Notes under the pieces: generated by a model
What the model was told of the DNA's origin: nothing
Databases searched by the model: none
What the model saw: only the letters and a program-made list of their open reading frames with translations
Made by a program: the position numbers and the translations under genes
Part shown: one piece after another, positions 13,942-57,613 of the stretch
How the letters are laid out: every line of letters starts with the position of its first letter
Position numbering within the stretch: the stretch's first letter is position 1
Assembly (NCBI GenBank): GCA_964645795.1
Contig: CAZYCL010000001.1
Location: forward strand, 159,194-223,193
Direction: 5' to 3'
DNA: 64,000 nucleotides
From: an uncultured Planctomycetales bacterium
GTDB lineage: Bacteria; Omnitrophota; Gorgyraeia; Gygaellales; Profunditerraquicolaceae

Positions 13942-15531
13942 TTAAAACTCCTTAAGATTCTTACCGTCCTCCTCGAACGGAATAACATCCTCAGGCTTGC
14001 TTACTCTTACCCCCGAAAATGATCCCTTCATATCCTTTGAAGACGCTGCCAGCCTATGTCTTTCGAGCGACCTGCGGTCATGGCCAAGAAGCTTGGCTTT
14101 TGGGTCGATAAGGGCGTTCTTTGCCCCGCCTACGAGGTCGGTGAGTCCGGCAACAAGGCTCTTTAAAAGCTGGGCTTGGGAAGAAAGCTCCTCGGCGCTT
14201 GCCGCTGTTTCTTCGGCGGCGGAAGCGGTCTCGTGAGTTGCGGTGCTCACCTCGGCCACAGAACAGGCAACATTAGTGATGGCCTGCGACTGGTCAGAGC
14301 TGGCTTTGGCGATATCGGCTACAATATCGGCTACCTTGTTAGCATGGTCGCTTATATCGTTCAATGCCCCGCCTACTTTTTTGGCAATCTCCGAGCCGTT
14401 CTTGGCCTTAGAGATGTTATCCTCGATGAGGCTGGCTGTATCTTTGGCAGCCTCAGCGGAACGCTTGGCAAGATTTCTGACTTCCTCGGCTACTACGGCA
14501 AAGCCTTTGCCGTGCTCACCGGCCCTGGCTGCTTCAACCGCCGCATTCAAAGCCAGAAGATTGGTCTGGAAGGCGATCTCCTCGATAGTCTTAATGATCT
14601 TGGAGATCTTGTCAGAAGACTGGTTTATGGCCGACATCGCCTGTTCCATCTCTTGCATGGAGACATTTCCCTGTTCGGCGGTTCGTTTTGTATCCTGGGC
14701 GATATTGTTGGCTTTCTGGGCGTTTTCCGAATTCGAGAAGATCACCGTATTCATCTCTCCCAGTGAATCGGTAACCTGCTGAACGCCTGAAGCCTGCTCT
14801 GTAGCCCCTTGCGAAAGCTGTTGAGACGCAGAAGCGACATGAACGGAGGCGTTGGTGATCTCGTTAGCCGAGGAATCAAGGTTCTTTACCGTAGCCAGGA
14901 TCGGCTTGGCAATGGAGTTTCCCAGCAGGACGGTCACTGCTATCCCGGCTAAAATGATTATTGCCGAAAATACAAGGATGACGGAATTAATCCTGCCGGT
15001 GGTAGCCGAGACATACCCCTTGTCAAAACCGGTAAACCACATCCCGATAATCTGGTTAGCTTGATTTTTTATCGGAGAGTATTTTGACAAAACCTCTTTT
15101 CCCACGACATTGGCGATACCGATAAAATCCCTGCCTTCCCGGAGCACTTTCTGGTTGACCTCTTCCGAGACTTTCGTTCCCACGGCCCGGGAACCGTCCT
15201 CTTTGATCACGTTAGTCGCCACGCGGGTGTCAGCGGCAAAAATTGTAACCAGGGCGCCGGTGCTTGCCTTAATTTTATCCACAAACTCCCAATCACCGTT
15301 AAACAAATGCTCGCCCTTATAAAGCTCGTTACCCCTGAGGGACCACTCGCCCGGATAACTGGTTTCCAGAAAATCGCGGGAAAGCTTATGCTCAGTTTCA
15401 AGCTTAGATATGATAAGATTGTTGGAAAGCCTGCCGACTTCATGGCTTATGAAAAAATACACCCCCAGGCCGAACAATAGGAACAAAGATACGGTAGGAA
15501 TAGCAATTCTTTGCTTCATGCTGAACGCCAT
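13942..15531 (-). CDS. Methyl-accepting chemotaxis protein with periplasmic Cache-type sensor
   Basis: N-terminal TM, sensor region, second TM, then an MCP signalling domain ([38 protein letters not shown]). Confidence 0.9.
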
Positions 15532-16300: not shown

Positions 16301-17959
16301 CTAAAACTCTTTCAGGCGATGGGCCTCATCTGCGGACAAAGCTTCATCGGGCCTGGTGATCATTGGGCCTGCATTATCCTGTTTAGCGGACCTGCCGGGT
16401 TCTGCGCTTTTCTGGGGTTTATTGGTTTGCGCGTGCCCCGCGCCATGCTTTAGCTGCTTCCTTCTTTCGCAAGCACTATCTATGCGCTCCTGGCTCTGGG
16501 CCAATGCCACCCTTAAACCGCCTATGACCTGAGCCAGCTCAACGATCAACCCCTTTAGCATCTGCGCCTGGGAAGAGAGCTCTTCGGCGCTAGATGCGCT
16601 CTCCTCGGCGGAGGCGGCGGTCTGCTGGGTAACCTGGTTCATCTGGGTGACGGCATTAGTGATCTGGTTTATGCCGCTGGACTGCTCCTTGGAAGCCGCG
16701 GCGATCTCCGCTACGAAATTAGCCACCTTGGTTGCCTGCTGGGTGATCACGTCAAAAGAAGTCTCGATATCTTTGGAGTTATCGAGGCTGGCTTTTGCCT
16801 TGGACATATTATCTTCTATGAGAGTAGCGGTATCTTTGGCCGCTTCCGCTGATCTCTTAGCCAGATTCCTTACTTCTTCGGCCACCACCGCAAAACCTTT
16901 GCCGTGCTCGCCTGCGCGCGCGGCCTCAACCGCAGCGTTCAAGGCCAGAAGGTTAGTCTGGAAGGCGATCTCCTCGATGGTCTTGATGATCCTGGATATC
17001 TTATCGGAAGACTGGCTCAACTCATGCATCGCCTCGCCCATCCTGCCCATGGCAATAGCCCCGGCTTCGGCAGAAGCCCTTGCTTCCTGGGCTATTTCAT
17101 TGGCCTTGGAGGCGTTCTCGGCATTCTGGTTGATCATGGCATTCATCTCTTCAAGAGAGCTGGATACCTCTTCAATAGACGAGGCCTGCTCGGTAGCCCC
17201 CTGGGAAAGCTCCTGGGAGGCTGCGGCAACTTCTGTAGCCGCGATAGTAGTCTGGTCTGCGCCGGAGTTAAGATTATAGGCGATGCGTTTTACGGGCCTG
17301 GCAATAGACCTGGCAAATAATACCGACACAACCGTAGTCGCCAGGAAAAGCAGAATAACTATAAACAAAGTCCAGTAGATAACCTTACCCACTTCTCTTT
17401 CGACGTCGTCTATATAAATACCACTACCCACGATCCAGCCCCACTTGGGATACAGCTTAACGAAAGAAATCTTAGGGTACTGCTTGGGATCGCCTGGTTT
17501 TCTCCAATAGTAATTTACAAACCCCTCTGCCTTCTGCCTGCAGACATTGACCATCTCTACGAAAAGCGCCTTTCCCGTAGGGTCCTTATAATCGATTAGG
17601 CTCTTGCCGTTAAGATCGGTGGTGATGGGGTGCATGATCATGCGCGGCTCAAGGTCGTTTATCCAAAAGTAATCATTATCGCCGTAACGCATGGCTCTTA
17701 TTTGCTCTATGGCCTTGCCCTGAGCTTCGGACAGAGAAAGCTCGCCCGCCTCCACCCTGTTGCCATAATCGGCGATGACGCTGAACGCCGCTTCCACCAG
17801 CTGCCGCGTCTTCAAGTATTTGGCATCATAAGCGCTGTTTCTGAACATCGGGACTATCCAAATCAGTATAAGAGAAAACGCAAGAGCGATACCGATGCAC
17901 AACAGCAGTATCTTGCTAAAAATACCCATGTTCTTGAACATCTCCCCCTCCTTTTTCAC
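16301..17959 (-). CDS. Methyl-accepting chemotaxis protein with sCache_2-type sensor
   Basis: [16 protein letters not shown] sensor motif; MCP signalling domain nearly identical to that of the other MCP. Confidence 0.9.
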
Positions 17960-22175: not shown

Positions 22176-24764
22176 TTATAATTTAACAGTGTCGCCTCGC
22201 GAAAGAGCGATTATCCCCTGCACGTCCAGTATAAGCCCGACACGGCCGTCTCCCATTATCGCGCCCCCCGAAACGCCTTTTGCCTTGCGCACGAACGTCC
22301 CACCCAAAGACTTTACCACTACCTGCTGCTGGGTTATCAAATCATCGACAAGTAAAGCACAACGATCCTCCCTGTCTTCTACCACCACAAGCAATGCCTG
22401 GCTTATATCTTCGGCGGCATCGGTTATGCCGAATATCCTGTGCAACCTGACTATCGGTATAAGCCTGCCGCGGAACATTACCATCTCAGCGCTATTGGCA
22501 ACCGTTGAGACCGCCTCTTTGGCCGGCCGAAAGCTCATTGAGATGTTCACGGTAGGCAGTACGTAGCGCTGACTGCCAACCTTAAGGAGCATCCCATCGG
22601 TAATGGCCATGGTGAGGGGGAATTTTACGATAAAAGTGGAGCCCATCCCCGGCCTGGATATTATTTCTATCCTGCCATGCAAAGCCTCTATGTTCTTCTT
22701 GACCACATCCATGCCCACGCCCCTGCCCGAGACATCGGTGATCTTATCGGCGGTAGAAAAGCCGGGGAGAAAGATCAGGTTATAGATCTCGTTATCAACA
22801 AGCTCCTTGCCCGCCTCAAGCAAACCTTTTTCAACGGCCTTATCCAGGATCTTCTGGCGATCAAGGCCTCTACCGTCATCCTGGATCTCAACGATGATGT
22901 TGCCGCTCTGATGATAGGCCGAAAGTTTGACGCTGCCTGCCGAAGGCTTTCCGGCTTTTTCCCTTTCATCCGGATACTCAATACCGTGGTCAATGGCGTT
23001 ACGCATCATGTGCACCAGGGGGTCATTGATAATATCGACCATATTGCGGTCGATCTCGGTCTCTTCCCCTTCCGAAATGAAGTTAACAACCTTTCCGTTC
23101 TTCTGGGACAGGTCCCTGACCAGGCGCGCCATCTTCTGGAAAGTGCTTTTTAGCGGCACCATGCGCATAAGCATGCTTAGGTCCTGCAGCTCCCGGACGA
23201 ATTTAGCGGTATGCTGCACCTTTTTCAAAAGCGCGTCATTCTCGCTGGAAAGCATGGTTTTGTCCTGCGCAACCATAGAGTGGGCAATAACCAACTCGCC
23301 GATCATGTCGATGAGCCTGTCGAGACGATCGGTCCTTACCCTGACCGAAGAATCGATAAAAGTTTCGCCGCCCTTTATCTGCTGTTGGGTCCTCAAGGCC
23401 CTGCCTACGTCGGAAAGGCTGGCGGCTTTGGATTTTATCAGGGCCATGCCCAGAGGCTCGTTGCCCTGTTGCGCAACGGCATCCTCTATATCCTGGCGCG
23501 AGACCTTGCCTTCGGAAACCAGGATGTCTCCGATCCTCACCGACACCCCCGAATCCTCGGCTCCTTTTTCGCTCACGCCGCTTGAATGCGGGTCGCCGAG
23601 AGCGCTCAAAAGCTGGTCGTAATTTCCGGGTTTGATGATCGGCTCGCCGCCCAGAGAGTTTCGAACGCCTTCCAAAAGCAGCTTCAACATATCCACCGAA
23701 CGCAGTGCCAGGTCGGCGTAGCCTCCGGAATACTGTATTTTTTTATCGCGAATTTTGCTAAGCAGGTTTTCGGCCTTGTGAGCTAACTCCGCTATCAAGG
23801 TATAACCCAAAAACGATGAAGTGCCTTTTATGGTATGGAAAGCCCTGAATACGATATTAACGGCCTCTGCGTTAGAGGCATCCGTCTCAAGGGCCAGAAG
23901 GGCTGCCTCGGCTTTCTCTATGTAATCAAAGCTCTCGGTTACATAATCCGCAATAAGACTGGCGTCGCTCTGGGCAGGCTGGGATTTCTGCGGTTCCGGA
24001 CTTGAGTCGGTCGTTTCCGCCGGCTTAGATGAGGTATCAGCCGCCTTTGACTTGATTTTTTTGCTCTGCGCATTTTGAGCGTCCGGCAAAGACGCTTCTT
24101 TTAAGACCTTGTTTCCCTCTTTTCCCTGATCCACGAAGCTCATGGCGGTCTCGATCAGCGCGCCGGTGGAAGTCAATATCTCCTGGCTGCAGACGCCGGC
24201 CTCAAGGCTCGCATCCAGCTTCTTTAAAATCTGCCCAAGGACCTGATTCGCCCCGGCAGGAGACCTGCTGGATTCATACAGGGATCTGACCATCTCCCTT
24301 ATTGCCGACAGCCCCAGCAGATCCTGCGCCTCCAGGCGTATCAGGCTTGCAGCTATTTCGTCAAGCGTAGCTATTTTTTTCTGATTAAGGGCGTCGTCAC
24401 GATAAGGGCACTCTTCGGGAGAACGGCCGAGGGTTATCCACAGCGCTCTGCCGGCATCATTGAGCCGTTCGTTCTTGTTGGGGGCATCCGAAAGGAAATC
24501 GCCGACTGCCACAAGCGACATCTCGATTGCGTTAACAAGACAGAACGGATCGTCGCTGGTCTTTTCATAAACGGCCTGAAGCGCGTTTAAGGCGAGGTTT
24601 AATACGGAAGATAATTTATAGAGCTCTGAGGGGAGACAGCCGGCGAGCTCTTCCAATTGGCTGCCTATCCGGACAATAAGCTCCTTGTTGTCCGGGGTCA
24701 AATCCTTGAAAGAGGCTGAGAGCTTCCTTAATTTCTCAACAAGGGTTTTGCCTGTTTCTGGCAT
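22176..24764 (-). CDS. cheA: Chemotaxis histidine kinase CheA with about 270-aa N-terminal extension
   Basis: Hpt (FHTIKGTSSFLG), HATPase (DDGRGLD...GRGVGMD) and C-terminal CheW-like domain. Confidence 0.9.
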   Translation of the reverse strand: MPETGKTLVEKLRKLSASFKDLTPDNKELIVRIGSQLEELAGCLPSELYKLSSVLNLALNALQAVYEKTSDDPFCLVNAIEMSLVAVGDFLSDAPNKNERLNDAGRALWITLGRSPEECPYRDDALNQKKIATLDEIAASLIRLEAQDLLGLSAIREMVRSLYESSRSPAGANQVLGQILKKLDASLEAGVCSQEILTSTGALIETAMSFVDQGKEGNKVLKEASLPDAQNAQSKKIKSKAADTSSKPAETTDSSPEPQKSQPAQSDASLIADYVTESFDYIEKAEAALLALETDASNAEAVNIVFRAFHTIKGTSSFLGYTLIAELAHKAENLLSKIRDKKIQYSGGYADLALRSVDMLKLLLEGVRNSLGGEPIIKPGNYDQLLSALGDPHSSGVSEKGAEDSGVSVRIGDILVSEGKVSRQDIEDAVAQQGNEPLGMALIKSKAASLSDVGRALRTQQQIKGGETFIDSSVRVRTDRLDRLIDMIGELVIAHSMVAQDKTMLSSENDALLKKVQHTAKFVRELQDLSMLMRMVPLKSTFQKMARLVRDLSQKNGKVVNFISEGEETEIDRNMVDIINDPLVHMMRNAIDHGIEYPDEREKAGKPSAGSVKLSAYHQSGNIIVEIQDDGRGLDRQKILDKAVEKGLLEAGKELVDNEIYNLIFLPGFSTADKITDVSGRGVGMDVVKKNIEALHGRIEIISRPGMGSTFIVKFPLTMAITDGMLLKVGSQRYVLPTVNISMSFRPAKEAVSTVANSAEMVMFRGRLIPIVRLHRIFGITDAAEDISQALLVVVEDREDRCALLVDDLITQQQVVVKSLGGTFVRKAKGVSGGAIMGDGRVGLILDVQGIIALSRGDTVKL

Positions 24765-24788: not shown

Positions 24789-25307
24789 CTACTTGTTAGG
24801 CTCGGGTCTGCCTATGCCGATCTTAACCCAGAATTGCCCAAAGCTGAACTTGAACAACAGACATACCGCTGGAGACTTGGCAGGCAGCAACAGCTCCAAC
24901 TCTTTGCCTCTGGCTACGGTAGGAATGGATAGATCGCTCTTGATGCCCCAGACCTCAAGACGTCCGGAAATGTCCCCGGTAAAGATATTAGTAAGCTCGC
25001 CGATAACGTCATTCATATCGGAGCTGGCAAACGGGATATCGCAGCGCGCAAACCTCTTTGCAACAACGACGGCTGCATCCTGAGAAAAACCCAGATGAAG
25101 GGAAAGCGCCAGCTCCTTACTTACCAAAGACATGATGCCCACGATTACGTCTTCAAGCGCGCCGTTTTCCTTCATGCCCACATACTGCGGTTTTTCGTTA
25201 CAGATAAGGCCAAGGGCCGATATGGTCGCTTGCTTTACATCTTCCAATAATTCTGGCGAAAGCCCGCTTCCGCTGAAAAGCTTACTTACAAGAATCGACT
25301 CCTCCAA
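24789..25307 (-). CDS. CheX/CheC-like phosphatase (second copy)
   Basis: GELTNIFTG motif containing E-x2-N. Confidence 0.55.
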   Translation of the reverse strand: MEESILVSKLFSGSGLSPELLEDVKQATISALGLICNEKPQYVGMKENGALEDVIVGIMSLVSKELALSLHLGFSQDAAVVVAKRFARCDIPFASSDMNDVIGELTNIFTGDISGRLEVWGIKSDLSIPTVARGKELELLLPAKSPAVCLLFKFSFGQFWVKIGIGRPEPNK

Positions 25308-25887: not shown

Positions 25888-25928
25888 TGTTATGTAACTT
25901 CGGACTATAATAAAAGTATATAGCCATT

Positions 25929-26005
25929 GAAAAGGCAAACTAGCAGTAATGCTGGGGCGCAAAGCTACAGCCCCGACTCTTAAGTCGGGGGGCTGAGCTG
26001 CCAAA
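25929..26005 (+). ncRNA. c-di-GMP-I (GEMM) riboswitch aptamer, copy 1
   Basis: GGCAAAC 5' element. P2 hairpin with GNRA (GUAA) tetraloop. GGGCGCAAAGC junction (Vc2 has GGACGCAAAGCC). P3 hairpin CAGCCCCGACU/AGUCGGGGGGCUG. P1 closure GGCA/UGCC. Confidence 0.7.
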
Positions 26006-26021
26006 GGTGAAGCTTGGTGCG

Positions 26022-26077: not shown

Positions 26078-28150
26078 ATGGGTATGGGACAGCTGAATAA
26101 ACTGGAGCATTATTTTAATCCTCTGAGGCTGCAGCTTATGCAGGCAGCCAGCAATATCATGAACCCTGCGCACATGCAGAAGATCAACGCCAAGATCCAA
26201 AGCTTGGCCAAAAACATTAATCCCCTGAAAGCAAAGGCCCATACCCAGCAGGATGTCTCGGTTAAGATGCAAGGTAGCTACACCGCCACTGCCTCCGTTC
26301 AATCTCAGCGGACGGGTAACGTGTTGAATGTCCTGGCCCAGTACAATGCCAGCGGCAATACCGCTTCCCAGCTTAACTCCAACCTATCCCAGACACAAAA
26401 TATAAAAGTAAACCAGGGTCAGCCAAAACCCGGGTATGCAAATCAAACCATACAGCTTGATCAAAGCCGCAATGTCCTGAGCAACTCTTCGTTCGATCTT
26501 GCCAGGACCGTTGACTCCACTATTGTCTCCAACGCTTACCAGAAAGTGGGCGGCTCTATAAGAGAAACCAGCATCACTACTAATACCAATCAGGATTTAA
26601 GCCGCTTGCAGAATACCAATGCCGTTACCGAAACAATGCGCAATGTAAGCAACACGGATAATAAAGGTAATGTCGTAGGCAATGCGTTTAGTCATACAAT
26701 AGTAAACCAGGAAACCAGCTCCGCCCTGAATCAAAACACGGTAAGCTCCCTCCAACGCGACGTGCTTCAGGATACCACAATCAGCAAAGCTAATATCGCA
26801 GGCGTAGCTATAACCAAAACACAGATAGATACGCAGGACACTCGCAGCGGCTCTACCAACATCCAAACCAACAGCCTGACCGATTATGCTGCCACGGTAA
26901 CCAGGCTCAACCAAGAAGGCCAGGTAATCGGCGTCCAGGATTCTAACCGGGTTAGCGAATCCAACGAAGACAGAAATATCGTCATGCAACAGAATATTAA
27001 CACGGAAAGGGAGATCCTCTCTCTTGCTAAGGGGCAGGAAAGAGTGAGCCTTGATACACAAAAGACCGAAGGCCAGCTGACCCAAAATACAAATGCCGCC
27101 GCTGCGACCGTAGTCACTAACCTCGCTCCTGACGGCTCGACCATATCGACGCAGGCCTATCTTACCAATACCGCCTCTACCCTTAATCAAAGCACCAATA
27201 CCGACATCAACCGCATCGTCAACCAGGATGCCGCAGGCGTGCGCGGAGCAGGAGAGCTAAGCAGTAAAGTAGTCACGGACATTGACACCAGGATAGAGAG
27301 CACCGCGCCCAACGGAAACGTCGCGGTGCGCGAAATCGAAAGGAATATCCAGGACCAGAACTCCGCTGCCTGGGCAGGGGCCATCGAGTTAACTAATCTC
27401 GAGGGGGGCGGCAGACTCTATAGCCTTAAGAACGTCGATGTGGGAAGCCGCGTAATCAACGACGTCACTAAGGAAGGTGTCAACGAGCTTAGGGTCAATA
27501 CCGACACCGCAACCGCCAAAATGGTTAGCGGAAGCGTCCAATACCAGCCGGCCGAACAGGTGACACCCGTCGGAAATGTCGCAGGTGCCGGGGTAGGAAT
27601 AAGCTTTGCCACCTATAGCGGTATTGCCAGCTCCTTTAAGCTGGATACGGGCGAGGTAAACTTCAGCTTCTCCTTCGCTTCTTCAGAGATCACCTCAAAA
27701 GAGACCGCTAAGTCTGTTGACGGAGAGCTGGCAAGCGAAGCCACGGCGCTTTCCGGCCAAAAGAACCAGGCGCAACTGGAAGGAAAACTCACTTCAACAG
27801 TGCTTGAAGACGGCAGCCGCCTGATCACGGTAAACGCCGCCTATGATAGAAGCGGCTTAAAGATGGTCACGGAAGGCGAAAAGAAAGGCGAGTTTGCACA
27901 AGCCGAACAAGATACCAATGTTCAATTACAGGGAACGATCCTGGTAAGTAAAAACGGGGAGGTAAAGACAGTAGAGTCTTCTTTCGACATGTTCAAGACA
28001 GAAGACTCCGAGGCCTCAGGCACAAGCGTTTCAGCGGTCAAGAACGCCCTGGCGCAGACAGACCCGTTGCGGAAAAACTTCTACTTCGATAACGGAACGC
28101 TCAGGTTCAACCTTGGCTTTGCGACGCTTAACTTCTCGGTCTACGCTTAA
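26078..28150 (+). CDS. Large Thr/Asn/Gln/Ser-rich hypothetical protein (690 aa, no Cys, no signal peptide) under riboswitch control
   Basis: AGGAGG Shine-Dalgarno 7 nt upstream of the ATG. Long polar low-complexity N-terminal part and beta-strand-like C-terminal third. No recognisable family. Confidence 0.7.
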   Translation: MGMGQLNKLEHYFNPLRLQLMQAASNIMNPAHMQKINAKIQSLAKNINPLKAKAHTQQDVSVKMQGSYTATASVQSQRTGNVLNVLAQYNASGNTASQLNSNLSQTQNIKVNQGQPKPGYANQTIQLDQSRNVLSNSSFDLARTVDSTIVSNAYQKVGGSIRETSITTNTNQDLSRLQNTNAVTETMRNVSNTDNKGNVVGNAFSHTIVNQETSSALNQNTVSSLQRDVLQDTTISKANIAGVAITKTQIDTQDTRSGSTNIQTNSLTDYAATVTRLNQEGQVIGVQDSNRVSESNEDRNIVMQQNINTEREILSLAKGQERVSLDTQKTEGQLTQNTNAAAATVVTNLAPDGSTISTQAYLTNTASTLNQSTNTDINRIVNQDAAGVRGAGELSSKVVTDIDTRIESTAPNGNVAVREIERNIQDQNSAAWAGAIELTNLEGGGRLYSLKNVDVGSRVINDVTKEGVNELRVNTDTATAKMVSGSVQYQPAEQVTPVGNVAGAGVGISFATYSGIASSFKLDTGEVNFSFSFASSEITSKETAKSVDGELASEATALSGQKNQAQLEGKLTSTVLEDGSRLITVNAAYDRSGLKMVTEGEKKGEFAQAEQDTNVQLQGTILVSKNGEVKTVESSFDMFKTEDSEASGTSVSAVKNALAQTDPLRKNFYFDNGTLRFNLGFATLNFSVYA

Positions 28151-50975: not shown

Positions 50976-51041
50976 ACGGGGACGGTTCGAAAAAAATGGG
51001 GACAAAAAATGGGGACGGTTCTCCAAAAGAGAACCGTCCCC
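50976..51041. repeat. Palindromic repeat element GGGGACGGTTCTC-loop-GAGAACCGTCCCC with two upstream partial GGGGAC(GGTTC) copies (copy B)
   Basis: 51011-51023 and 51029-41 form a perfect 13-bp inverted repeat; partial copies at 50976-88 and 50997-51002. Same sequence as at 30780-30835. Confidence 0.7.
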
Positions 51042-51075
51042 ATTCCTATGTTTAATTCTATTCTACCTTATACCC

Positions 51076-51660
51076 TTACGGCGATAAGGTAAGCGTGACT
51101 GTGCCGGTGTAAGTACCTGAAGGCTTGGCCGGGGTTATCACTGTAACTCCCGAAGCATCGCCTGAACCGCTGGCAATGCCATAGTAGATCCTAAGCCTGG
51201 AGTTAGCCAGCTGGGTGTTGGTATACTGAATGTTGTTGCTGTTGGCGTAGCTGACGTAGCCTCCGGAAAGCGGGGTTTCGGACTGCGTGGTGTTATTAAC
51301 GCTAACAAAGGTTACATTGACGTTGTTATTCAGGTTGTTTGAAGCATCCCTCTGGAAATCACTCCTGGTATGAGTGATGTTCCAGCTGGTGTGATTCGAT
51401 GTCACCGGCGCATCTACCACAAAGTAGGTGCCGGAGCGGTACACATTGTCCCCGCCGAGCGTCAACTCACCGAAATCCATACCCACGCCGGTAAGGTTTG
51501 AGACCGTTGACCAGTTGCCGCCGCTGACCTTGCTTAAAACCACGTTCATGGTGTGCGTATCACCGATGCTGGCGGCGATGCGTATGTCGGTAGCCGCCAT
51601 TACAGGCACGGCCGCGACAAGACACAGAACCGTAATTACTGCTAAAATCCTCTTAACCAT
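51076..51660 (-). CDS. Secreted Asn/Thr-rich beta-rich protein; candidate fiber/pilin-like subunit
   Basis: Signal peptide ending AxA, mature N-terminus ATDIRIAASIG. No Cys in the mature part. Confidence 0.5.
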   Translation of the reverse strand: MVKRILAVITVLCLVAAVPVMAATDIRIAASIGDTHTMNVVLSKVSGGNWSTVSNLTGVGMDFGELTLGGDNVYRSGTYFVVDAPVTSNHTSWNITHTRSDFQRDASNNLNNNVNVTFVSVNNTTQSETPLSGGYVSYANSNNIQYTNTQLANSRLRIYYGIASGSGDASGVTVITPAKPSGTYTGTVTLTLSP

Positions 51661-51967
51661 GCTGCTCCTCCTTTTTAAATCTCCCTGATTATAGATTAAG
51701 AAAACAAAACCTTAAGCCGCCTTACTAAAGTTATCCTGCCCTCTTTGCCTCCTTTCTCATCATTATTAACCCTTTTAAAAAGTGATTAACAACCGAGCAA
51801 AAAAATTTATGATATTTATAAAAAGGGAGGAAACTGGCCAGGAAACCGTGGCAATTTCCTCCCTTAAGTATGATTTTCCCGAATTTTTCAAAGTTTAACA
51901 TATTATTTAGGGAAAGTCAAGGCTGAAAAGGTATTTTTTTCCTCCTATGCCCAATATTGGCCTTGAC

Positions 51968-51996
51968 TTGAATTCGGCAGCATAAAATGGTATACT
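51968..51996 (+). promoter_or_regulatory. Sigma70 promoter with extended -10 (TTGAAT-17-TGgTATACT) driving riboswitch 2
   Basis: -35 at 51968-51973, 17-bp spacer, TG at 51988-89, -10 at 51991-96. Confidence 0.55.
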
Positions 51997-52022
51997 TTAG
52001 TTGTAAAAATTAGGAACCACTG

Positions 52023-52180
52023 AAAAAGGCAAACTAGCAGTAATGCTGGGGCCCCGCCGACTAAGGCGGGTCCCTCCTGACGAAAGCCGGGAGGGAGCAA
52101 AGCGACAGTTCCCACAGGGGAGGCGCCCAACCTTAAAGGATAGGTTGGCGTCCGCTTGTGCGGAGGGCTGAGCTGCCAGA
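52023..52180 (+). ncRNA. c-di-GMP-I (GEMM)-like riboswitch, copy 2 (variant with about 80-nt insertion of extra hairpins)
   Basis: First 27 nt (AAAGGCAAACUAGCAGUAAUGCUGGGG) are identical to copy 1. A GGAGCAAAGCGACAG junction-like segment is present. The 3' GGGCUGAGCUGCCA is identical to copy 1. Confidence 0.5.
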
Positions 52181-52185
52181 AGTAA

Positions 52186-52219
52186 CAAACCCTAAAGCTA
52201 TGTGCCTTTAGGGTTTTTG
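52186..52219 (+). terminator. Intrinsic terminator (riboswitch 2 expression platform)
   Basis: AACCCTAAAG-loop-CTTTAGGGTT hairpin followed by TTTTGTTT. Confidence 0.65.
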
Positions 52220-52238
52220 TTTGGCTAAGGAGAACGGC

Positions 52239-52496
52239 ATGAAGCTCTTCTCTATCCTAATTTCCGCTCTAACGTTAATGGTCTGCGTGTCTGCTGCCAC
52301 AGCCCAGGATATCCGCATCGCCTGCGTCATACCCGCGGTCCCGGGACAAAACGTTGCGCTCGTAAACGAACAATCCTATAAAGAAAGCAAACCTTCCTTC
52401 AAAGACGCGCTGGTACTGCAAAAACAGGAACAACAGGCCAGGATAGCGCAGGGGGCCTCTCAGGTATTCACCATTCAAACAGTCTACAGCAGATGA
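52239..52496 (+). CDS. Small secreted protein (85-aa precursor) downstream of riboswitch 2
   Basis: AAGGAG Shine-Dalgarno 6 nt before the ATG at 52239. Signal peptide MKLFSILISALTLMVCVSAATA; mature N-terminus QDIRIACVIP. The track ORF starts at a TTG at 52221. Confidence 0.55.
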   Translation: MKLFSILISALTLMVCVSAATAQDIRIACVIPAVPGQNVALVNEQSYKESKPSFKDALVLQKQEQQARIAQGASQVFTIQTVYSR

Positions 52497-55316
52497 TTAT
52501 TCGTCGTTTCTCCTAAGCGGGATATTATAATAGTAGGCGGCCCCTTCGTTAAGGGTCACTTTCCTGGAAAGAGCTACCGTTGGCAGGTAATATACCGGCA
52601 GGCTGTTCAAATCCAGCTCCAGGACATAATCTCCGGGCCTAACGGAGCTAAACACATAACGGCCGTTCTCATCGGTCGCTCTGCCCTCTCTGTTATTCAG
52701 GGTCATCACTGCCCCCCTTACGCCGGGCTCTCCGATATTCAGCTCTCCGTTACCGTCTAAATCTTCAAATACGTACCCTGATATTTCGGAACGGCAGTTT
52801 ATGCCGAAATCAAGCCTGGAAAGCCTATGATGAAGGATGCCGGTCTTCTGGGAGGCCGGGGCGGTAAGCACGAAACCCGAAGGCAGGGTCGAGGTATCAA
52901 GGTTGACATAAGCATTCTTGCCCCTTACGGATTTAAAGCGGTAATAACCGAACAGGTCCGTGACTGCATGCTTATTCTTGCCCAACCAGACCTTGACCCC
53001 TTCAACCGGCGCTTCATCCCTGTCCATGATGCCGTCGCCGTTTAAGTCTTTGAAAACATACCCCTCGATGTCGCCGCTTGACTGCCAGTTTAACCCCGTA
53101 TCCCAGTTATAACGCATGCCGGCGTTAAGGTTAAGCTCGTAACGCTTGGAAACATCCGGGTTATCCGCCCAGACGTTACGCACCCTGACCGAGCCGTACA
53201 TCTGGGTATTCCTATCCGGGCTGTAAGTCAGCTCGGCGTAGCCTTCTATGTAATCTTCGCCGGATAGAAAGCTCAAACTCGATGCGGAATCTTCCTCGTC
53301 GCGGTAAGCCAAGCGCAGCGTCCCGGAAAAAGGCCCCTTGCCGATACGATCGCTCCAGTCCAGCCCTGTTTCAAAAACGTTGGGCGTGGAGCGCGCGCGG
53401 TTATAAGTCTCATCCAGCCAGTTAAACTCCTTGTTGGCGTAGTAATAAAGCCTGCCCAGGAGGCTCAAGCGCATCCCGGCAAACAGCCGGTCGTTGATGT
53501 AATCCGACGGCGGATTGGAGAAGCTTTGGTACTTCTGATGGTAATACGTAGCGCTGAGCTCAATATCCCTGAACAGCCGGATACTGCGCACCAGGCCTAT
53601 ATCGGAGCTTTGATAGCGAAAAGGAGATATCCTGCCCAGATCGTTTTGCAGGGTATAATCAAGCCTTAGGGTAGTCTTGGGGTCAAAACGGTAGTTGGCG
53701 CTCCAGTTAAGGTCCTCGTTCAAACGCTGCTCGTCCTCCGGGGACGGATAGAGCCGGTCGCGATAAATATCCAGGAAAGAATAGATATCCAGCTTCTCGG
53801 TCGGCCTGTAATTGGCGGTAAATGACCCCCCCACCTCACCCTGGCGCCATCCGTCGCTGGTTATGCTGGTGAACTTCTTGCTGACATCCCTGAACTCCGT
53901 TGAGAGGTTAAGCTTCTCTCCTGCAAAATATAGATTCGAAAGATGCGCAAAGGAGTCGGAGTCAAAAGCCAGTTCCTGCCTTGCCTTCCAGGCTCCGCTA
54001 CCCCACTCGCCTGAGATATCATAGGTATAAGGGTTAAGCCCCTCCTCCCTGTCCCTGCCCCAGCCATGGGCGAAGTTAAGCTCATAGCCCTGTTTTTCGC
54101 CCGGTCTAAAGCTCAGATTAAAACCGTTGATATAGGCATCTCTCTGTTTGTAGAAATCCGGGGAGATCGCCCCAAAGGGAAGGCTGTTCTCCCGGCCGTA
54201 AAAAAGGGTGTACTCGAGCTTGTTATTAAAGGCAGGAGATGAGATCAGGCCGCCGCGCAGTGGGCTGCCGGTGTAAGAAAGATTGGAGAATTTCGGGGGG
54301 AAATCAAAGATATCAAACCCCCTAAGGTTGAAATCCTTAAAAGGGCCGAGCCGGCCTTCGGTCAGGCCCATAGTATAGCGGCCCAGGTCCGTCCTGTCCG
54401 TAAAACGGTTGACTCCGACAGCCGCGTCCATCCTGCCGTAAGGAGTATCGCCGTAGAGTTCAATAAAATGATTATAATAATAATCCGTACGCTCCAGCGA
54501 CTTAAGCCTTCTGCCTGATTCAAACGAGCCCCAGTCAAGCTGGTAATTGAGCCGGAAGTTGCCTGAACGCTCTTCTTCAAGTCGCATGCGTTCTTCAAGG
54601 CTTTCACCGCTAAGCCGGCGAGGCAGGATCAGGAATTCAATGGTCTTGCGCCCATTGTCGTCCCAGACATACAGATAGGTGTAGCCGATATTATCAGCGG
54701 ATACCATAAGGATGTCCGGCGTCTTCTGCTCGACCGAAATGATGATATTCTCCGTAGCCAGGTACCGGAGTATATGCTGGCCTACAAGCGAAAGCTTGCG
54801 GCCCTGTTCGATCTCCAGCGGCTGCCTTACCAGGCTGTCAATATCGCTTATTTTTACCACGGAAGGCGACGGTGTTTCGGCCAAAAAACGCCCGCCGTCA
54901 ACCTTCTGGGCCTGGGGAAAAGACGATATATCTAAGGCGGCTGCTGGCGGGAGGACTGCTTTGCCTGAGGATTCGACAACGCCGGGTTGGATTTTTTTGG
55001 GTTTGGCTGCACGGACAGGGCCGGACGCGGGGGCTGCGGCAGCGTTGTTGCCCGAGGCCTGCGCAAATAACTCTGTTTGCGATTTTTCTATATATATTTT
55101 TGCGGTATAACAATAAGGGTCTGCCAGGAGGGCTTTTTTGAACTCAAGGATGGCTTTATCGTACTCCTTCTGCTGATAATACAAAATACCCGTATCGCAG
55201 AAGTACTCGGCGGCAAGAGGATATGTGGCAGAATATGAAAGTGACGGCGAATAAAGGAAGGCGGCCAACAGCAGGAGTATTGCTTTCAAAGACATGCGGC
55301 CCTTATTGTAATTCAC
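52497..55316 (-). CDS. Large outer-membrane protein: signal peptide, TPR-like N-terminal region, secretin-N/pilus-formation-like module, predicted beta-barrel region and two C-terminal SdrD-B/Cna-B-like Ig domains
   Basis: 939 aa. The barrel-like middle part is rich in Y/W/F/D/R. The two SdrD-B/Cna-B-like domains carry the motifs GYVFKDLNGDG...DLFGYYRF and GYVFEDLDGNG...NGRYVF. Confidence 0.55.
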   Translation of the reverse strand: MNYNKGRMSLKAILLLLAAFLYSPSLSYSATYPLAAEYFCDTGILYYQQKEYDKAILEFKKALLADPYCYTAKIYIEKSQTELFAQASGNNAAAAPASGPVRAAKPKKIQPGVVESSGKAVLPPAAALDISSFPQAQKVDGGRFLAETPSPSVVKISDIDSLVRQPLEIEQGRKLSLVGQHILRYLATENIIISVEQKTPDILMVSADNIGYTYLYVWDDNGRKTIEFLILPRRLSGESLEERMRLEEERSGNFRLNYQLDWGSFESGRRLKSLERTDYYYNHFIELYGDTPYGRMDAAVGVNRFTDRTDLGRYTMGLTEGRLGPFKDFNLRGFDIFDFPPKFSNLSYTGSPLRGGLISSPAFNNKLEYTLFYGRENSLPFGAISPDFYKQRDAYINGFNLSFRPGEKQGYELNFAHGWGRDREEGLNPYTYDISGEWGSGAWKARQELAFDSDSFAHLSNLYFAGEKLNLSTEFRDVSKKFTSITSDGWRQGEVGGSFTANYRPTEKLDIYSFLDIYRDRLYPSPEDEQRLNEDLNWSANYRFDPKTTLRLDYTLQNDLGRISPFRYQSSDIGLVRSIRLFRDIELSATYYHQKYQSFSNPPSDYINDRLFAGMRLSLLGRLYYYANKEFNWLDETYNRARSTPNVFETGLDWSDRIGKGPFSGTLRLAYRDEEDSASSLSFLSGEDYIEGYAELTYSPDRNTQMYGSVRVRNVWADNPDVSKRYELNLNAGMRYNWDTGLNWQSSGDIEGYVFKDLNGDGIMDRDEAPVEGVKVWLGKNKHAVTDLFGYYRFKSVRGKNAYVNLDTSTLPSGFVLTAPASQKTGILHHRLSRLDFGINCRSEISGYVFEDLDGNGELNIGEPGVRGAVMTLNNREGRATDENGRYVFSSVRPGDYVLELDLNSLPVYYLPTVALSRKVTLNEGAAYYYNIPLRRNDE

Positions 55317-56178
55317 CTATCCTGAGTATGGAGCTATTTTCGCCAAACTCGATCATCGCTTCTTTTGTGACCACCGGTCCGCGGCCCAACTGCGCCTCCT
55401 CCAGCGCTTTACCAAGGTCAACGGTCAATACCAGATTGTACCTGCCCTTGGGCACTTTTGCCCTGGATTGAGCGACTAACCGGGCCTTGCCTCCTGGAAA
55501 AGTATAAATATTACTGAATTCGTCGCGGGCTAATACCAAACCTTTATCGTTGATTATATGGAATGTGCCGCCGGCGGTAATATCGACATTACCGGTGTTG
55601 ACAAAATCCAGCGTCAGCTTGAAATTATAAGGCTCTTTGCCTTTGGCGTTTTCAAAACTTATGCCGGCGATCGAAGCGGACCTCTCTGTCGTACCTTTGG
55701 CCTCCACATAGAAAAGCGTAGCTACTCTTAAAGCGATATTCATGCCTGCCTGCAATCTGTCCGAACCCTCAGCTACGCTTCCCAGCAGGGTTTCAAAGAA
55801 AAGCGCGGCAAAATAACCCCCCTTGGCTTCCTTCGGTATCTTTACGGAATATCTAACGCTCTTCTTGCTGAACGGCGCCATCTCCAGCTCCGCAGGACTG
55901 AAGGTTATCCAGGAAGCGCAGGAAAGCCCGGTAGTACGGGCAGGGACAAACTCTTTGGTCCCGTCAGCTGCCGGCAGATAATACCAGTCATTAAGGTAGA
56001 GCTTGTATGTCGCTTTTTTATCGCTCTGGTTCTCAACCGTCATATCCCCGTATATGGTCTGGCCCGGCTGGGCAATGACCCTGATCTTGGATTTGCTGAT
56101 CAAGGGCAGGTCGAAAGCGCAGGCCTGCGCGAAACAAAACAACAGGATACCAAAACAGCTGATCAAGATTTTTCTCAT
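55303..56178 (-). CDS. Secreted beta-rich hypothetical protein (possible periplasmic chaperone-like component)
   Basis: Start trimmed to MRKILISCFGILLFCFAQA (signal peptide). AAGGAG Shine-Dalgarno upstream. Confidence 0.5.
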   Translation of the reverse strand: MRKILISCFGILLFCFAQACAFDLPLISKSKIRVIAQPGQTIYGDMTVENQSDKKATYKLYLNDWYYLPAADGTKEFVPARTTGLSCASWITFSPAELEMAPFSKKSVRYSVKIPKEAKGGYFAALFFETLLGSVAEGSDRLQAGMNIALRVATLFYVEAKGTTERSASIAGISFENAKGKEPYNFKLTLDFVNTGNVDITAGGTFHIINDKGLVLARDEFSNIYTFPGGKARLVAQSRAKVPKGRYNLVLTVDLGKALEEAQLGRGPVVTKEAMIEFGENSSILRIGELQ

Positions 56179-56203: not shown

Positions 56204-57613
56204 CTACATCTCCAGCAAAGAGAACGTAGCGTTAGCCGAGTAATCTCCCGCCGGCGCCTCTTTCGGACATGCCAGCTCATATATGAGCCTGAACCTGTCC
56301 GCAGAGCCCTTAGGGTCTGAAACAAACAAAATCGTATGGCCTTTTTTTACTTCCTGTTTTCCGGCAAGCCTCACGCCGCCCTTGGAATCAAGGCTTTCCG
56401 TACGCATGGTAAAATAGCTAAAAGGTATGGACTTGCCCTCCTTGTTGGTCAGCTCCATGGATATATCCTGGCTTACCTGATAAGGCCTGCCGATGTTGCT
56501 TTTTATCTCTACCAGCAATACGCTTTGTTTCGGAGGCTGAGTAGGCTTTAAGTCCGGAAAGTTTATGTAATACCTCTGGTCCTGAGGGGTGATCACCAGC
56601 TCAAATACGCGCTCGATCTGAAGCTCAAGATCTATCGTCTCCAGGCGGCTTTGCGCCCCTTCTACCTCGAGTACGTACTGGATGCGGGAGCGATACCTTC
56701 CGGCTTTCTGGCCCAAGATATCTGCGGCAATATAATCGATACTAAATAGCCAGTCAGAGCGGCCGTCAGGCTGAGAGCGATAGATCTCCTGAGGAGCACT
56801 CGATACTTCGGTCTGCCTGGAAGAAGCGCTGCCTTTAGAGGCGCCGCTGACGAAATACTGCAATACCCCTTGCGTCAGCCTCGTTCCGTCTTCGGACTCC
56901 GCGGGCCTGGCTAATGACTGCAAGATCCTGAAAGGCCTGCCAAGGTCGCCTTTTATCTTTACAACCACCTGGCCGCTTTTAAGGTCGCGCCGGCCCGGCT
57001 CCAGGAAAATACTCTTTGAACCGGAAGCTGAGCTTATCTCTATAAAAGGCCTGTTGTCTCCGGTCCGCACATTGACCTCGATTTCGATGACTTTGGTCAC
57101 CGAAGCCAACGACGAAGAGATGGGGTTCAAGGTAAGGCTGATGCGGCCGCTATATAATCCCGGCGGGATGTCTTCGATCCTTTGAATGCCGAGAAAATAA
57201 GTGAAGGTGTCGGCGTCTCCGGCAGGATCCGATACGTAGAGGACTTCGTCTGTCCTGACCTGAGTATCTCCTGATGGTATGCGCAGGTTGCCGAACTTGT
57301 TCGAACCGCGCTGCGCCCGCATCACCAGATTATCTCTGATATAAAAACCCGGCCTGTCCCTGCTGGTAAGCGGCTGTATAAGCCTCTGCACTATTTCATA
57401 ACGGCAGCCGGCATCCGTGTTTACCGCCAGCCTTATTCCTTTAAAAAGATTGGCGTTATCCAGTTGCAGCCGGTATCCGCCCTCGGTAAGCGAGTAAGAA
57501 AGGTCGAAGACCGGGGCAGGATAAGCATTTGGACATAGTTGCAGGAATAATATCAAGGCGGGAAAGAAAAATCTTAGATAGGCCCTGGAGGCTAGATCCT
57601 TCAGAAATTTCAT
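56204..57613 (-). CDS. Secreted hypothetical protein with repeated beta-rich modules (469 aa)
   Basis: Signal peptide; no family recognised. Confidence 0.5.
   Translation of the reverse strand: MKFLKDLASRAYLRFFFPALILFLQLCPNAYPAPVFDLSYSLTEGGYRLQLDNANLFKGIRLAVNTDAGCRYEIVQRLIQPLTSRDRPGFYIRDNLVMRAQRGSNKFGNLRIPSGDTQVRTDEVLYVSDPAGDADTFTYFLGIQRIEDIPPGLYSGRISLTLNPISSSLASVTKVIEIEVNVRTGDNRPFIEISSASGSKSIFLEPGRRDLKSGQVVVKIKGDLGRPFRILQSLARPAESEDGTRLTQGVLQYFVSGASKGSASSRQTEVSSAPQEIYRSQPDGRSDWLFSIDYIAADILGQKAGRYRSRIQYVLEVEGAQSRLETIDLELQIERVFELVITPQDQRYYINFPDLKPTQPPKQSVLLVEIKSNIGRPYQVSQDISMELTNKEGKSIPFSYFTMRTESLDSKGGVRLAGKQEVKKGHTILFVSDPKGSADRFRLIYELACPKEAPAGDYSANATFSLLEM

Follow-up and report, generated by a model that had tools for sequence, protein, structure and literature searches.

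The stretch analyzed here, referred to as the window, comprises 64,000 nucleotides (nt) of contig CAZYCL010000001.1 (assembly GCA_964645795.1) from an uncultured bacterium of the phylum Omnitrophota. On its plus strand, positions 52020-52182 carry an aptamer of the class I riboswitch for cyclic di-GMP (c-di-GMP), named c-di-GMP-I or GEMM-I, enlarged by two insertions. This aptamer, the second of its kind in the window and called element 2 in the following, lies in the leader of a gene for a small secreted protein, p85. The overall reading, to which a probability of about 0.65 can be given, is that element 2 is a functional c-di-GMP-I riboswitch, from an Omnitrophota lineage that tolerates large peripheral insertions, and that it controls transcription into p85, an accessory protein of an adjacent fibre-like gene cluster. 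As judged from its sequence, element 2 represents a known riboswitch class in a new structural form, found at a conserved regulatory position.

The sequence-only reading of this DNA had proposed a GEMM-like riboswitch with insertions, and covariance models bear it out. In a sensitive scan of positions 51900-52300 (401 nt), positions 1-80 of RF03167, which is the full model, align to 52019-52181 with 27.7 bits and an E-value of 1.4e-4. The alignment covers the whole model, but the score is below the RF03167 gathering score of 59, and no match to element 2 was obtained in the scan of the window at Rfam gathering thresholds. The shortfall is due to the two insertions of element 2, since insertion-free orthologs reach 59.6-70 bits and pass these thresholds. 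Homologs of the genes flanking element 2 are annotated as Candidatus Omnitrophota or Omnitrophica; 33 genome loci were fetched through homologs of one of these genes, p194 (78 homologs in Omnitrophota), and 42 more were obtained from a metagenome scan with the alignment of the p85 family. These related Omnitrophota loci are indicated by L-numbers (L006 etc.). A covariance model, R1, was built from 27 insertion-free orthologs; in its structure 96% of the cells are paired and 13 of the 22 pairs show compensatory changes, a result as high as this being found in none of 500 shuffles. With R1, element 2 scores 35.7 bits, the E-value for the 64-kb window being about 1e-8, and the riboswitch is found in 49 related loci; by tally, it is located upstream of a p85-type gene in about 52 of 56 informative loci.

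The other riboswitch of the window, riboswitch 1 (25925-26006, plus strand), scores 63.8 bits with RF03167 and is the only one detected in the window at Rfam gathering thresholds. Element 2 had been described as starting with the same 27 nt as riboswitch 1 and as ending with the same 3' strand of helix P1; the common start is in fact an exact 28-nt repeat, AAAGGCAAACTAGCAGTAATGCTGGGGC, at 25931-25958 and 52025-52052, which did not occur in 100 shuffles, and the common 3' end is GGGCTGAGCTGCCA. Between these ends element 2 is longer by about 82 nt. A recent intragenomic duplication was considered for the 28-nt identity and rejected: the same hairpin of helix P2 is an Omnitrophota-wide consensus, with CUAGCAGUAAUGCUGG present in more than 15 other genomes, so that the identity largely reflects the phylum and gives no evidence of recent duplication within this genome. 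The 3' strand of element 2 has a single substitution compared with the ortholog consensus GGCUGCGYUGCC, which creates a G-A mismatch and makes the strand identical to that of riboswitch 1; it could derive either from point mutation or from gene conversion.

By alignment to the family structure, element 2 keeps the three-way junction of helices P1, P2 and P3 in the family register and forms every defined pair but one in P3. P1 pairs CUG (52020-52022) with CAG (52177-52179); the junction strand J1/2, AAAAAG, ends in the unpaired G52028; the base of P2 joins GC at 52029-52030 to GC at 52097-52098, and the distal P2 hairpin (52034-52039 with 52044-52049) is closed by a GUAA tetraloop, of the GNRA type, at 52040-52043. 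A52099 is the first unpaired base after P2, P3 is formed by 52101-52108 with 52168-52174 and contains the mismatch G52104-A52171, and the unpaired GC preceding the 3' strand of P1 includes C52176. G52028, A52099 and C52176 are the equivalents of G20, A47 and C92, the ligand-contact bases in the crystal structures of the Vibrio cholerae Vc2 aptamer; all three are kept in element 2 and in all the 38 ortholog leaders that were parsed. Like c-di-GMP-I riboswitches such as Vc2 (RF01051, placed with RF03167 in clan CL00126), element 2 is located in a 5' leader and has the three-helix junction, AAAGGCAAAC in J1/2, the GNRA loop on P2, the GC-AAAG junction and the three contact-base equivalents. It differs from them in a 44-nt module of two hairpins within the 3' side of the internal loop of P2, a branched P3 extension of about 59 nt, one P3 mismatch and the sub-gathering score. 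The P3 extension remodels the distal part of the helix that, in type 1 GEMM-I aptamers, holds the receptor for the GNRA tetraloop of P2.

The best Rfam model for element 2 is that of a variant family, RF03167 (c-di-GMP-I-GGC), and its P2 insertion adjoins the junction that forms the binding pocket. Both points would fit a variant sensing another ligand, e.g. 3'3'-cGAMP (cyclic GMP-AMP), pGpG or another dinucleotide, as in GEMM-Ib and in the Rfam 'variant' subclasses. However, the RF03167 consensus CGC-G-AAG has a G after the closing pair of P2 (a distinguishing base read here from the model consensus, and not from a documented definition), whereas both riboswitches of the window and all parsed orthologs have an A at this position (GC-AAAG). 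Thus, element 2 carries the canonical A47, RF03167 is simply the best-scoring member of the clan, and element 2 is not filed as a GGC variant. Moreover, the base at position 20 is G, and not the A of the cGAMP-sensing GEMM-Ib, and that at position 92 is C. A different ligand is very improbable, and element 2, in spite of being an insertion variant, probably binds c-di-GMP. The combination of RF03167 as best model by score and yet a canonical A is also found for riboswitch 1 (25925-26006, plus strand) and in L007, L009, L012-L014, L045, L048 and L062, which makes assignment by score misleading in this Omnitrophota lineage.

The earlier description of about 80 extra nucleotides forming GC-rich hairpins agrees with what the alignment resolves as two separate insertions. 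Insertion 1 (52053-52096, 44 nt, plus strand) consists of two adjacent hairpins, 52053-52070 and 52071-52096, placed between GGC, which forms the 3' side of the internal loop of P2, and the GC that closes P2; its fold has an energy of -29.4 kcal/mol (z -5.5). Insertion 2 (52109-52167, about 59 nt, plus strand) is a branched extension of distal P3, in place of a short apical stem-loop of about 10-35 nt in orthologs; the length of distal P3 varies among these, and it is extended also in L006 and L067. Insertions at exactly the same point of P2, between GGGRC and GC-AAAG, were found in nine loci, namely the window, L073, L057/58, L011, L039, L040, L053, L072 and a truncated L067. All the complete ones fold as two adjacent hairpins, with z from -2.4 to -7.2. 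Hairpin 1 is common to the window, L073 and L057, and hairpin 2 shows compensatory changes among these three at 3 of 6 pairs (UCCCUCC/GGAGGGA, UCCGCCA/UGGCGGA and CCCGCC/GGCGGG); in loci of other lineages the two-hairpin architecture is the same, while the sequences are unrelated. On this comparative evidence, the P2 insertion is a recurrent module and not decay. L073, whose P2 insertion is of the same kind, narrowly exceeds the threshold of RF01051 (35.1 versus 35), whereas L011, L039, L053, L057 and L072 fail the Rfam gathering thresholds. In a limited literature search, no description was found of insertions at this P2 site, nor of insertion variants.

A second insertion site was observed in J1/2, where a structured insert of about 50 nt between CUGAUAAA and GGCAAAC parts the 5' strand of P1 from the core. 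It is present in L042 (290-350) and L047 (about 1810-1885) and, upstream of the model match, in L043, L065 and L066.

The proposal of an extended -10 promoter and a terminator that belong to element 2 itself was found to be correct, and both features are conserved among orthologs. A consensus scan places the promoter at 51968-51996 (plus strand), with the -35 box TTGAAT at 51968-51973, a 17-nt spacer and the extended -10 TG-n-TATACT at 51988-51996. An extended -10 lies within the 76 nt that precede the aptamer in 36 of the 48 orthologs, mostly as CTTGAAA-17-TGnTATACT about 33 nt upstream. Comparison of the 48 ortholog upstream regions revealed also a TTGACAATTAGG box, located between the -10 and the aptamer in most of them; GTTGTAAAAATTAGG at 52000-52014 (plus strand) is a degenerate copy of this box, which might serve as an operator or belong to the start of the transcript. 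The intrinsic terminator, also identified by consensus scan, occupies 52187-52222 on the plus strand and is formed by the hairpin AAACCCUAAAG-loop-CUUUAGGGUUU (52187-52216) and a U-run. The window has a single hairpin of the type CCCUAA(A)G-loop-C(U)UUAGGG followed by a U-run, as has each of 49 related loci, and in every leader examined it is found directly 3' of the riboswitch. The possibility that it represents a generic terminator or repeat was thus rejected, because it is present once per locus and at that position only; the same distribution indicates that it is a dedicated part of the switch. A second terminator lies behind this hairpin in many loci.

The terminator is also linked to the aptamer by base complementarity. 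In element 2, UGCCUUU at 52203-52209, where the loop of the terminator passes into its 3' strand, is complementary to AAAGGCA at 52025-52031 in the aptamer core. In orthologs the same part of the terminator very often reads (GUU)UGCC; GTTTGCC is the reverse complement of the invariant core GGCAAAC and is enriched 20-fold in the 150 nt following the orthologous aptamers (19 occurrences observed, 0.95 expected). From these features a mechanism can be proposed, in which transcription from the extended -10 promoter would produce a leader with the aptamer and the dedicated terminator, and this leader would set how much transcription reaches p85. Without ligand, the free 5' core would pair with the 3' half of the terminator and act as an antiterminator; with c-di-GMP, the core would be locked in the aptamer and the terminator would form, turning the switch OFF. 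This sign is assigned from the conserved complementarity alone, as the terminator loop and 3' strand can pair with a core GGCAAAC that would be free only without ligand, and it is on balance the likelier one.

A precedent for this logic is the Cd1 c-di-GMP-I riboswitch upstream of flgB in Clostridioides difficile, a transcription-terminating OFF switch. Both have a class I aptamer followed by an intrinsic terminator and share the proposed scheme in which the ligand favours termination. Element 2 differs in that its putative antiterminator would consist of the 5' core GGCAAAC of the aptamer paired with the loop and 3' strand of the terminator, a pairing weaker than the terminator itself, and in that it regulates a small secreted protein and not a flagellar operon.

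The p85 open reading frame (ORF), at 52239-52496 on the plus strand, encodes 85 amino acids (aa) and is preceded by a Shine-Dalgarno sequence, AAGGAG, at 52227-52232, 6 nt before the ATG, as read from the sequence. The signal peptide spans about residues 1-22 and the mature protein runs QDIRIACVIPAVPGQN...FTIQTVYSR; from the A-x-A rule, which was used for both p85 and p194, cleavage is placed at ...SAATA|QDIRIACVIP. In the family alignment (A2) the signal peptide is followed by a strand [ST]-[IV]-x-[IV]-x-C-x-IP, then x-IPG-x-N, a variable charged linker, which is probably disordered, and a conserved C-terminal strand h-x-T-[VIL]-[YV]-x-[RK], corresponding to QTVYSR in the window. A word-indexed protein search with p85 returned only p85 itself, and no Pfam or NCBIfam match was found for it; homologs emerged after loci had been fetched through p194. 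A hidden Markov model (HMM) of the family, which matches the window p85 with an E-value of 1.7e-29, identified homologs in 20 genome loci besides the window, and the metagenome scan added 42. Among close orthologs, the ratio of nonsynonymous to synonymous polymorphism (pN/pS) is 0.38-0.56, indicating that the protein is under purifying selection and is not just a leader peptide or a spacer. Element 2 had been said to precede a gene for a small secreted 85-aa precursor; this description can now be extended to a conserved family with signal peptide, Shine-Dalgarno sequence and purifying selection.

About 40 related loci contain, between the riboswitch and p85, an extra gene for a cytoplasmic protein of 75-95 aa (QRVVTFLNREEVDFLDK..., ...QRVVTFLNREEVDFLDKLGKDALFS...), absent from the window: L013, L014, L023, L024, L030 (10996-10739, minus strand, as an example), L037, L042, L044-L047, L049, L052-L057, L059-L062, L064, L065, L067 and L069-L080. 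Its product has no Pfam match and may be a regulator of the ribbon-helix-helix type.

The p85 gene converges on the 3' end of p939, the last gene of the adjacent cluster, and this layout raises the possibility that the main output of element 2 is antisense transcription. Read-through via p85 into the 3' end of p939 would interfere with, or destabilise, the mRNA of p469, p340 and p939, and maybe also the reverse, the translation of p85 being secondary or additional. In the window the p85 and p939 stop codons are directly adjacent, and in orthologs they are 5-68 nt apart; no convincing plus-strand terminator was found for more than 1.3 kb after p85, and on the minus strand a terminator-like hairpin is reached only beyond the riboswitch promoter, at 51865-51826. 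Furthermore, according to a published survey, no riboswitch family is more inclined to an antisense position relative to genes than that for c-di-GMP (PMC9943018). Conversely, p85 is conserved and selected and has a good Shine-Dalgarno sequence and a signal peptide, so that control of p85 in cis is certainly one output, and the convergent layout could reflect compact genomes alone. Element 2 can also be compared with antisense-acting riboswitches, such as the Listeria AspocR cobalamin riboswitch: the likeness is in a transcript that is convergent with the neighbouring operon and would overlap it, while the conserved ORF directly downstream of element 2 makes antisense action additional and not the only output. 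As the main output, antisense transcription is possible but rather unlikely; as a second, non-exclusive one beside the control of p85, it may occur. The minus-strand hairpin at 51826-51865, GGGAGGAAA..UUUCCUCCC followed by a U-run as read from the sequence, is located between the riboswitch promoter and p194; it could end the p469-p340-p939 transcript after an antisense run through p85 and the riboswitch.

The cluster next to p85 has a conserved order on one strand, p469 - p194 (1-3 copies) - p340 - p939. Synteny of p85 with it was seen in more than 50 loci, and in all cases where both genes could be located p85 runs towards the 3' end of p939 from the opposite strand. In the window all the four genes are on the minus strand. 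The first gene, p469 (56204-57613), encodes a secreted protein with three repeats, each of which ends in a strand G-x-Y-x-x-x-h-x-h-x-h (GLYSGRISLTLNP, AGRYRSRIQYVLEV and AGDYSANATFSLLEM) resembling the C-terminal strand of p194 (SGTYTGTVTLTLSP); a tip or adhesin subunit of several domains is a possible role for this protein. p194 (51076-51660) is a secreted beta-sandwich protein and a candidate fibre subunit. In its AlphaFold2 (AF2) model, with a predicted local distance difference test (pLDDT) of 92, the beta-sandwich starts at about residue 36 with no strand earlier, and the N-terminal segment ATDIRIAASIGDT, of 13 residues, lies outside the predicted fold. Foldseek gives weak structural matches, headed by donor-strand fibre subunits (CfaE, the cannulae protein CanX, TasA, FimA-type, EcpA and Caf1); these matches and the free N-terminal segment of the model are the observations that concern completion of the p194 fold by a donor strand. 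p340 (55303-56178; 291 aa from Met50) is a periplasmic two-domain protein with a PapD-like chaperone fold: its AF2 model (pLDDT 91.6) matches CfaA, CsuC, PapD and FimC over both domains, and the FimI-bound platform 9fx8 is among its structural matches in the PDB. Sequence searches of the PDB with the cluster proteins were uninformative, except for a weak EcpB match of p340. p939 (52497-55316), whose stop codon is the one that abuts that of p85, is an outer-membrane protein, with TPR repeats, a weak secretin-N-like match (T2SS-T3SS_pil_N), a large central region and two SdrD_B-like domains according to Pfam.

As modelled, the cluster looks like a chaperone-dependent surface fibre system of the donor-strand type. 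Its closest parallels in fold are the class 5 pili (CFA/I, with the chaperone CfaA and the subunits CfaE and CfaB) and the archaic Csu pili, the fold of p340 being similar to CfaA, CsuC, PapD and FimC and that of p194 weakly similar to CfaE and CfaB. The C-terminal strand of p194 and p469, G-x-Y-x-G-x-V-x-L-x-L, may be of the kind present in Csu and SCPU pilins. The cluster differs from these systems in its TPR-bearing p939, unrelated in sequence to ushers, and in the p340 fold, which has a second group of relatives discussed below. p469 has no match in Pfam or the PDB, neither Pfam nor NCBIfam gave a match for p194, p340 or p469, and no cluster protein matches the PapD_N/C, usher, fimbrial or SCPU families of Pfam. 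Literature searches found nothing on chaperone-usher systems of Omnitrophota.

In the window, p194 is not placed between p469 and p340, as in most of the related loci examined (L006-L037), having been relocated beyond the module of riboswitch and p85, where it is divergent from this module and forms a separate unit. This unit has a strong terminator of its own at 51008-51044, and the short direct repeat AAAAATGGGGAC occurs twice at 50985-51010, beside the terminator hairpin.

Several observations weigh against the overall reading, on the side of the riboswitch as well as on that of the fibre. Besides its sub-gathering score with RF03167, element 2 ranks last in R1 score among the intact copies, since no other copy has both insertions. 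The mismatch G52104-A52171 falls on a P3 pair that covaries among orthologs (CG 11, GC 8, UG 7). In four loci (L008, L010, L027 and L051) p85 is found without a riboswitch, with ample upstream sequence and filters off, e.g. at 10503-10900 of L008 on the minus strand; the riboswitch is lost or replaced in some lineages with p85. Finally, the antiterminator fold is on average 7.6 kcal/mol less stable than the minimum free energy fold, which contains the terminator; this does not favour the proposed antiterminator and makes both the mechanism and the sign of the switch provisional. The low score, the mismatch at a covarying pair, the presence of two large insertions at once and the complete loss in four lineages would be in accord with element 2 being a decaying riboswitch, unable to bind its ligand, with the level of p85 set by the promoter and a constitutive leaky terminator alone. 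However, every invariant position of the core and the three ligand-contact bases are intact. The inserted segments form good hairpins, and the same architecture is seen, with compensatory changes, in other genomes. Element 2 also keeps its promoter, its terminator and the complementarity of the latter to the aptamer core, and its sequence is identical in the five separate metagenome contigs examined. Decay is quite improbable, and a riboswitch still in function remains the preferred reading of element 2.

On the fibre side, a PapD-like two-domain chaperone is present (p340), but p939 has no usher homology in Pfam, including PF00577-type ushers, or in PDB sequence searches, and for lack of a recognisable usher the cluster is not assigned to the chaperone-usher family. 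In addition, p340 resembles the WxL-interacting proteins of Gram-positive bacteria about as well as it does chaperones. The sequence-only reading had seen in p85 a c-di-GMP-regulated minor subunit or assembly factor of a surface structure. A surface-structure role is reasonable, because of the synteny in more than 50 loci with the PapD-like p340, the beta-sandwich p194 and the outer-membrane p939, whereas its role as a minor subunit or assembly factor is something we infer. On genomic context, p85 is most likely an accessory component of the adjacent p469/p194/p340/p939 cluster.

The argument for a more specific role comes from the N-termini of p85 and p194. Cleavage of p194 is placed at ...PVMA|ATDIRIAASIG, and the segment A-x-DIRIA directly after the signal-peptidase site, which had been proposed as a conserved motif of the two proteins, is present in the pair of the window; it is not conserved as such in p85 orthologs, since exact IRIAC is found only in the window and L006, others having VRISC, IKVSC, ITVGC and similar sequences. 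In close p194 homologs AT-x-IRIAA-x-IG follows directly the signal peptide, and in distant ones the pattern is x-[IV]-x-V-x-A-x-[IV]-P. Alignment of the two families by hhalign over the full length, signal peptides included, gave a probability of 92%, but this was rejected as evidence of homology between p85 and p194, being driven by the signal peptides; with the mature sequences only, the result is marginal (P 0.042, probability 1.2%), with residues 3-23 of both in exact register. In their N-terminal 9-mers, p85 and p194 from one genome resemble each other more closely than do p85 and p194 from different genomes (3.57 versus 3.02 identities; permutation p 0.005, or 0.002 with BLOSUM scoring), a test that ignores phylogeny and is thus suggestive only; the identities are 7/9 in L030 and 6/9 in both the window and L006.

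The likeness could also be a coincidence, reflecting a generic amphipathic beta-strand after the signal peptide. p85 would then have nothing to do with donor-strand exchange and might, for instance, act as a regulator in the periplasm, plug or bind the p939 barrel, or serve as a matrix peptide. The marginal alignment of the mature sequences and the restriction of exact IRIA among p85 proteins to the window and L006 fit with this explanation, as does the finding that the p85 motifs C-x-IP-x-IPG-x-N and C-terminal QTVYSR have no counterpart in p194. On the other hand, the strands are in the same register at the two mature N-termini, the families share the consensus [ST]-[IV]-x-[IV]-x-[AC]-x-[IV]-[PG], the likeness is greater within genomes than between them, and the p85 HMM cross-matches some p194 paralogs. 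Coincidence is a considerable possibility; the DIRIA N-terminus common to the two proteins does exist, but its statistical support across the families is marginal.

If the shared N-terminus is taken as a functional feature, the N-terminal strand of p85, which resembles the N-terminal extension of p194, might occupy the groove of a subunit to cap, terminate or prime the growth of the fibre; this suggestion is tentative, and the odds are against it. Its model would be PapH and FimI, the terminator or adaptor subunits of chaperone-usher pili: by analogy, the N-terminal donor strand of p85 would fill the groove of the last subunit and stop or anchor polymerisation. p85 differs from these proteins in having no pilin domain, its roughly 63 mature residues being composed of two terminal strands and a disordered linker, and in belonging to a system with no recognisable usher. 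In its most extended form, the proposal is that of an undescribed, chaperone-dependent and usher-less fibre of Omnitrophota (p469, p194, p340 and p939), the growth of which would be gated by a p85 consisting of donor strands only, while both p85 and antisense transcription into the operon would be switched off by c-di-GMP via an expanded class I subclass, where the P2 internal loop has become a multi-helix junction. This whole scheme is improbable.

Elsewhere in the window, riboswitch 1 precedes a 690-aa ORF (26078-28150, plus strand) for which neither Pfam nor NCBIfam gave a match and no signal peptide is evident. Closely upstream, on the other strand, lies a chemotaxis cluster with CheX (24789-25307), CheA (22176-24764) and methyl-accepting chemotaxis proteins (13942-15531 and 16301-17959). 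A third R1 match, at 14441-14519 on the minus strand (11.2 bits, E 0.79), lies inside the coding region of one of the latter and was taken as chance.

The significance of these findings concerns both the riboswitch class and the biology of Omnitrophota. The thresholds of curated covariance models pass over a subclass of c-di-GMP-I riboswitches with a recurrent, structured insertion, present in at least nine loci at a site next to the binding pocket; a second site is in J1/2. This matters for counts of riboswitches in uncultivated phyla and for the question of how much peripheral architecture the aptamer fold can accommodate. The riboswitch also provides a functional handle on a conserved and wholly unannotated Omnitrophota cluster, which has a PapD-like chaperone fold and no usher. 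Genomic context and conserved regulatory features suggest that c-di-GMP may help to control a surface fibre through element 2, in a phylum whose members are ultra-small and possibly dependent on hosts. If p85 does act through its N-terminal strand, it would represent a minimal regulator of donor-strand fibre assembly.

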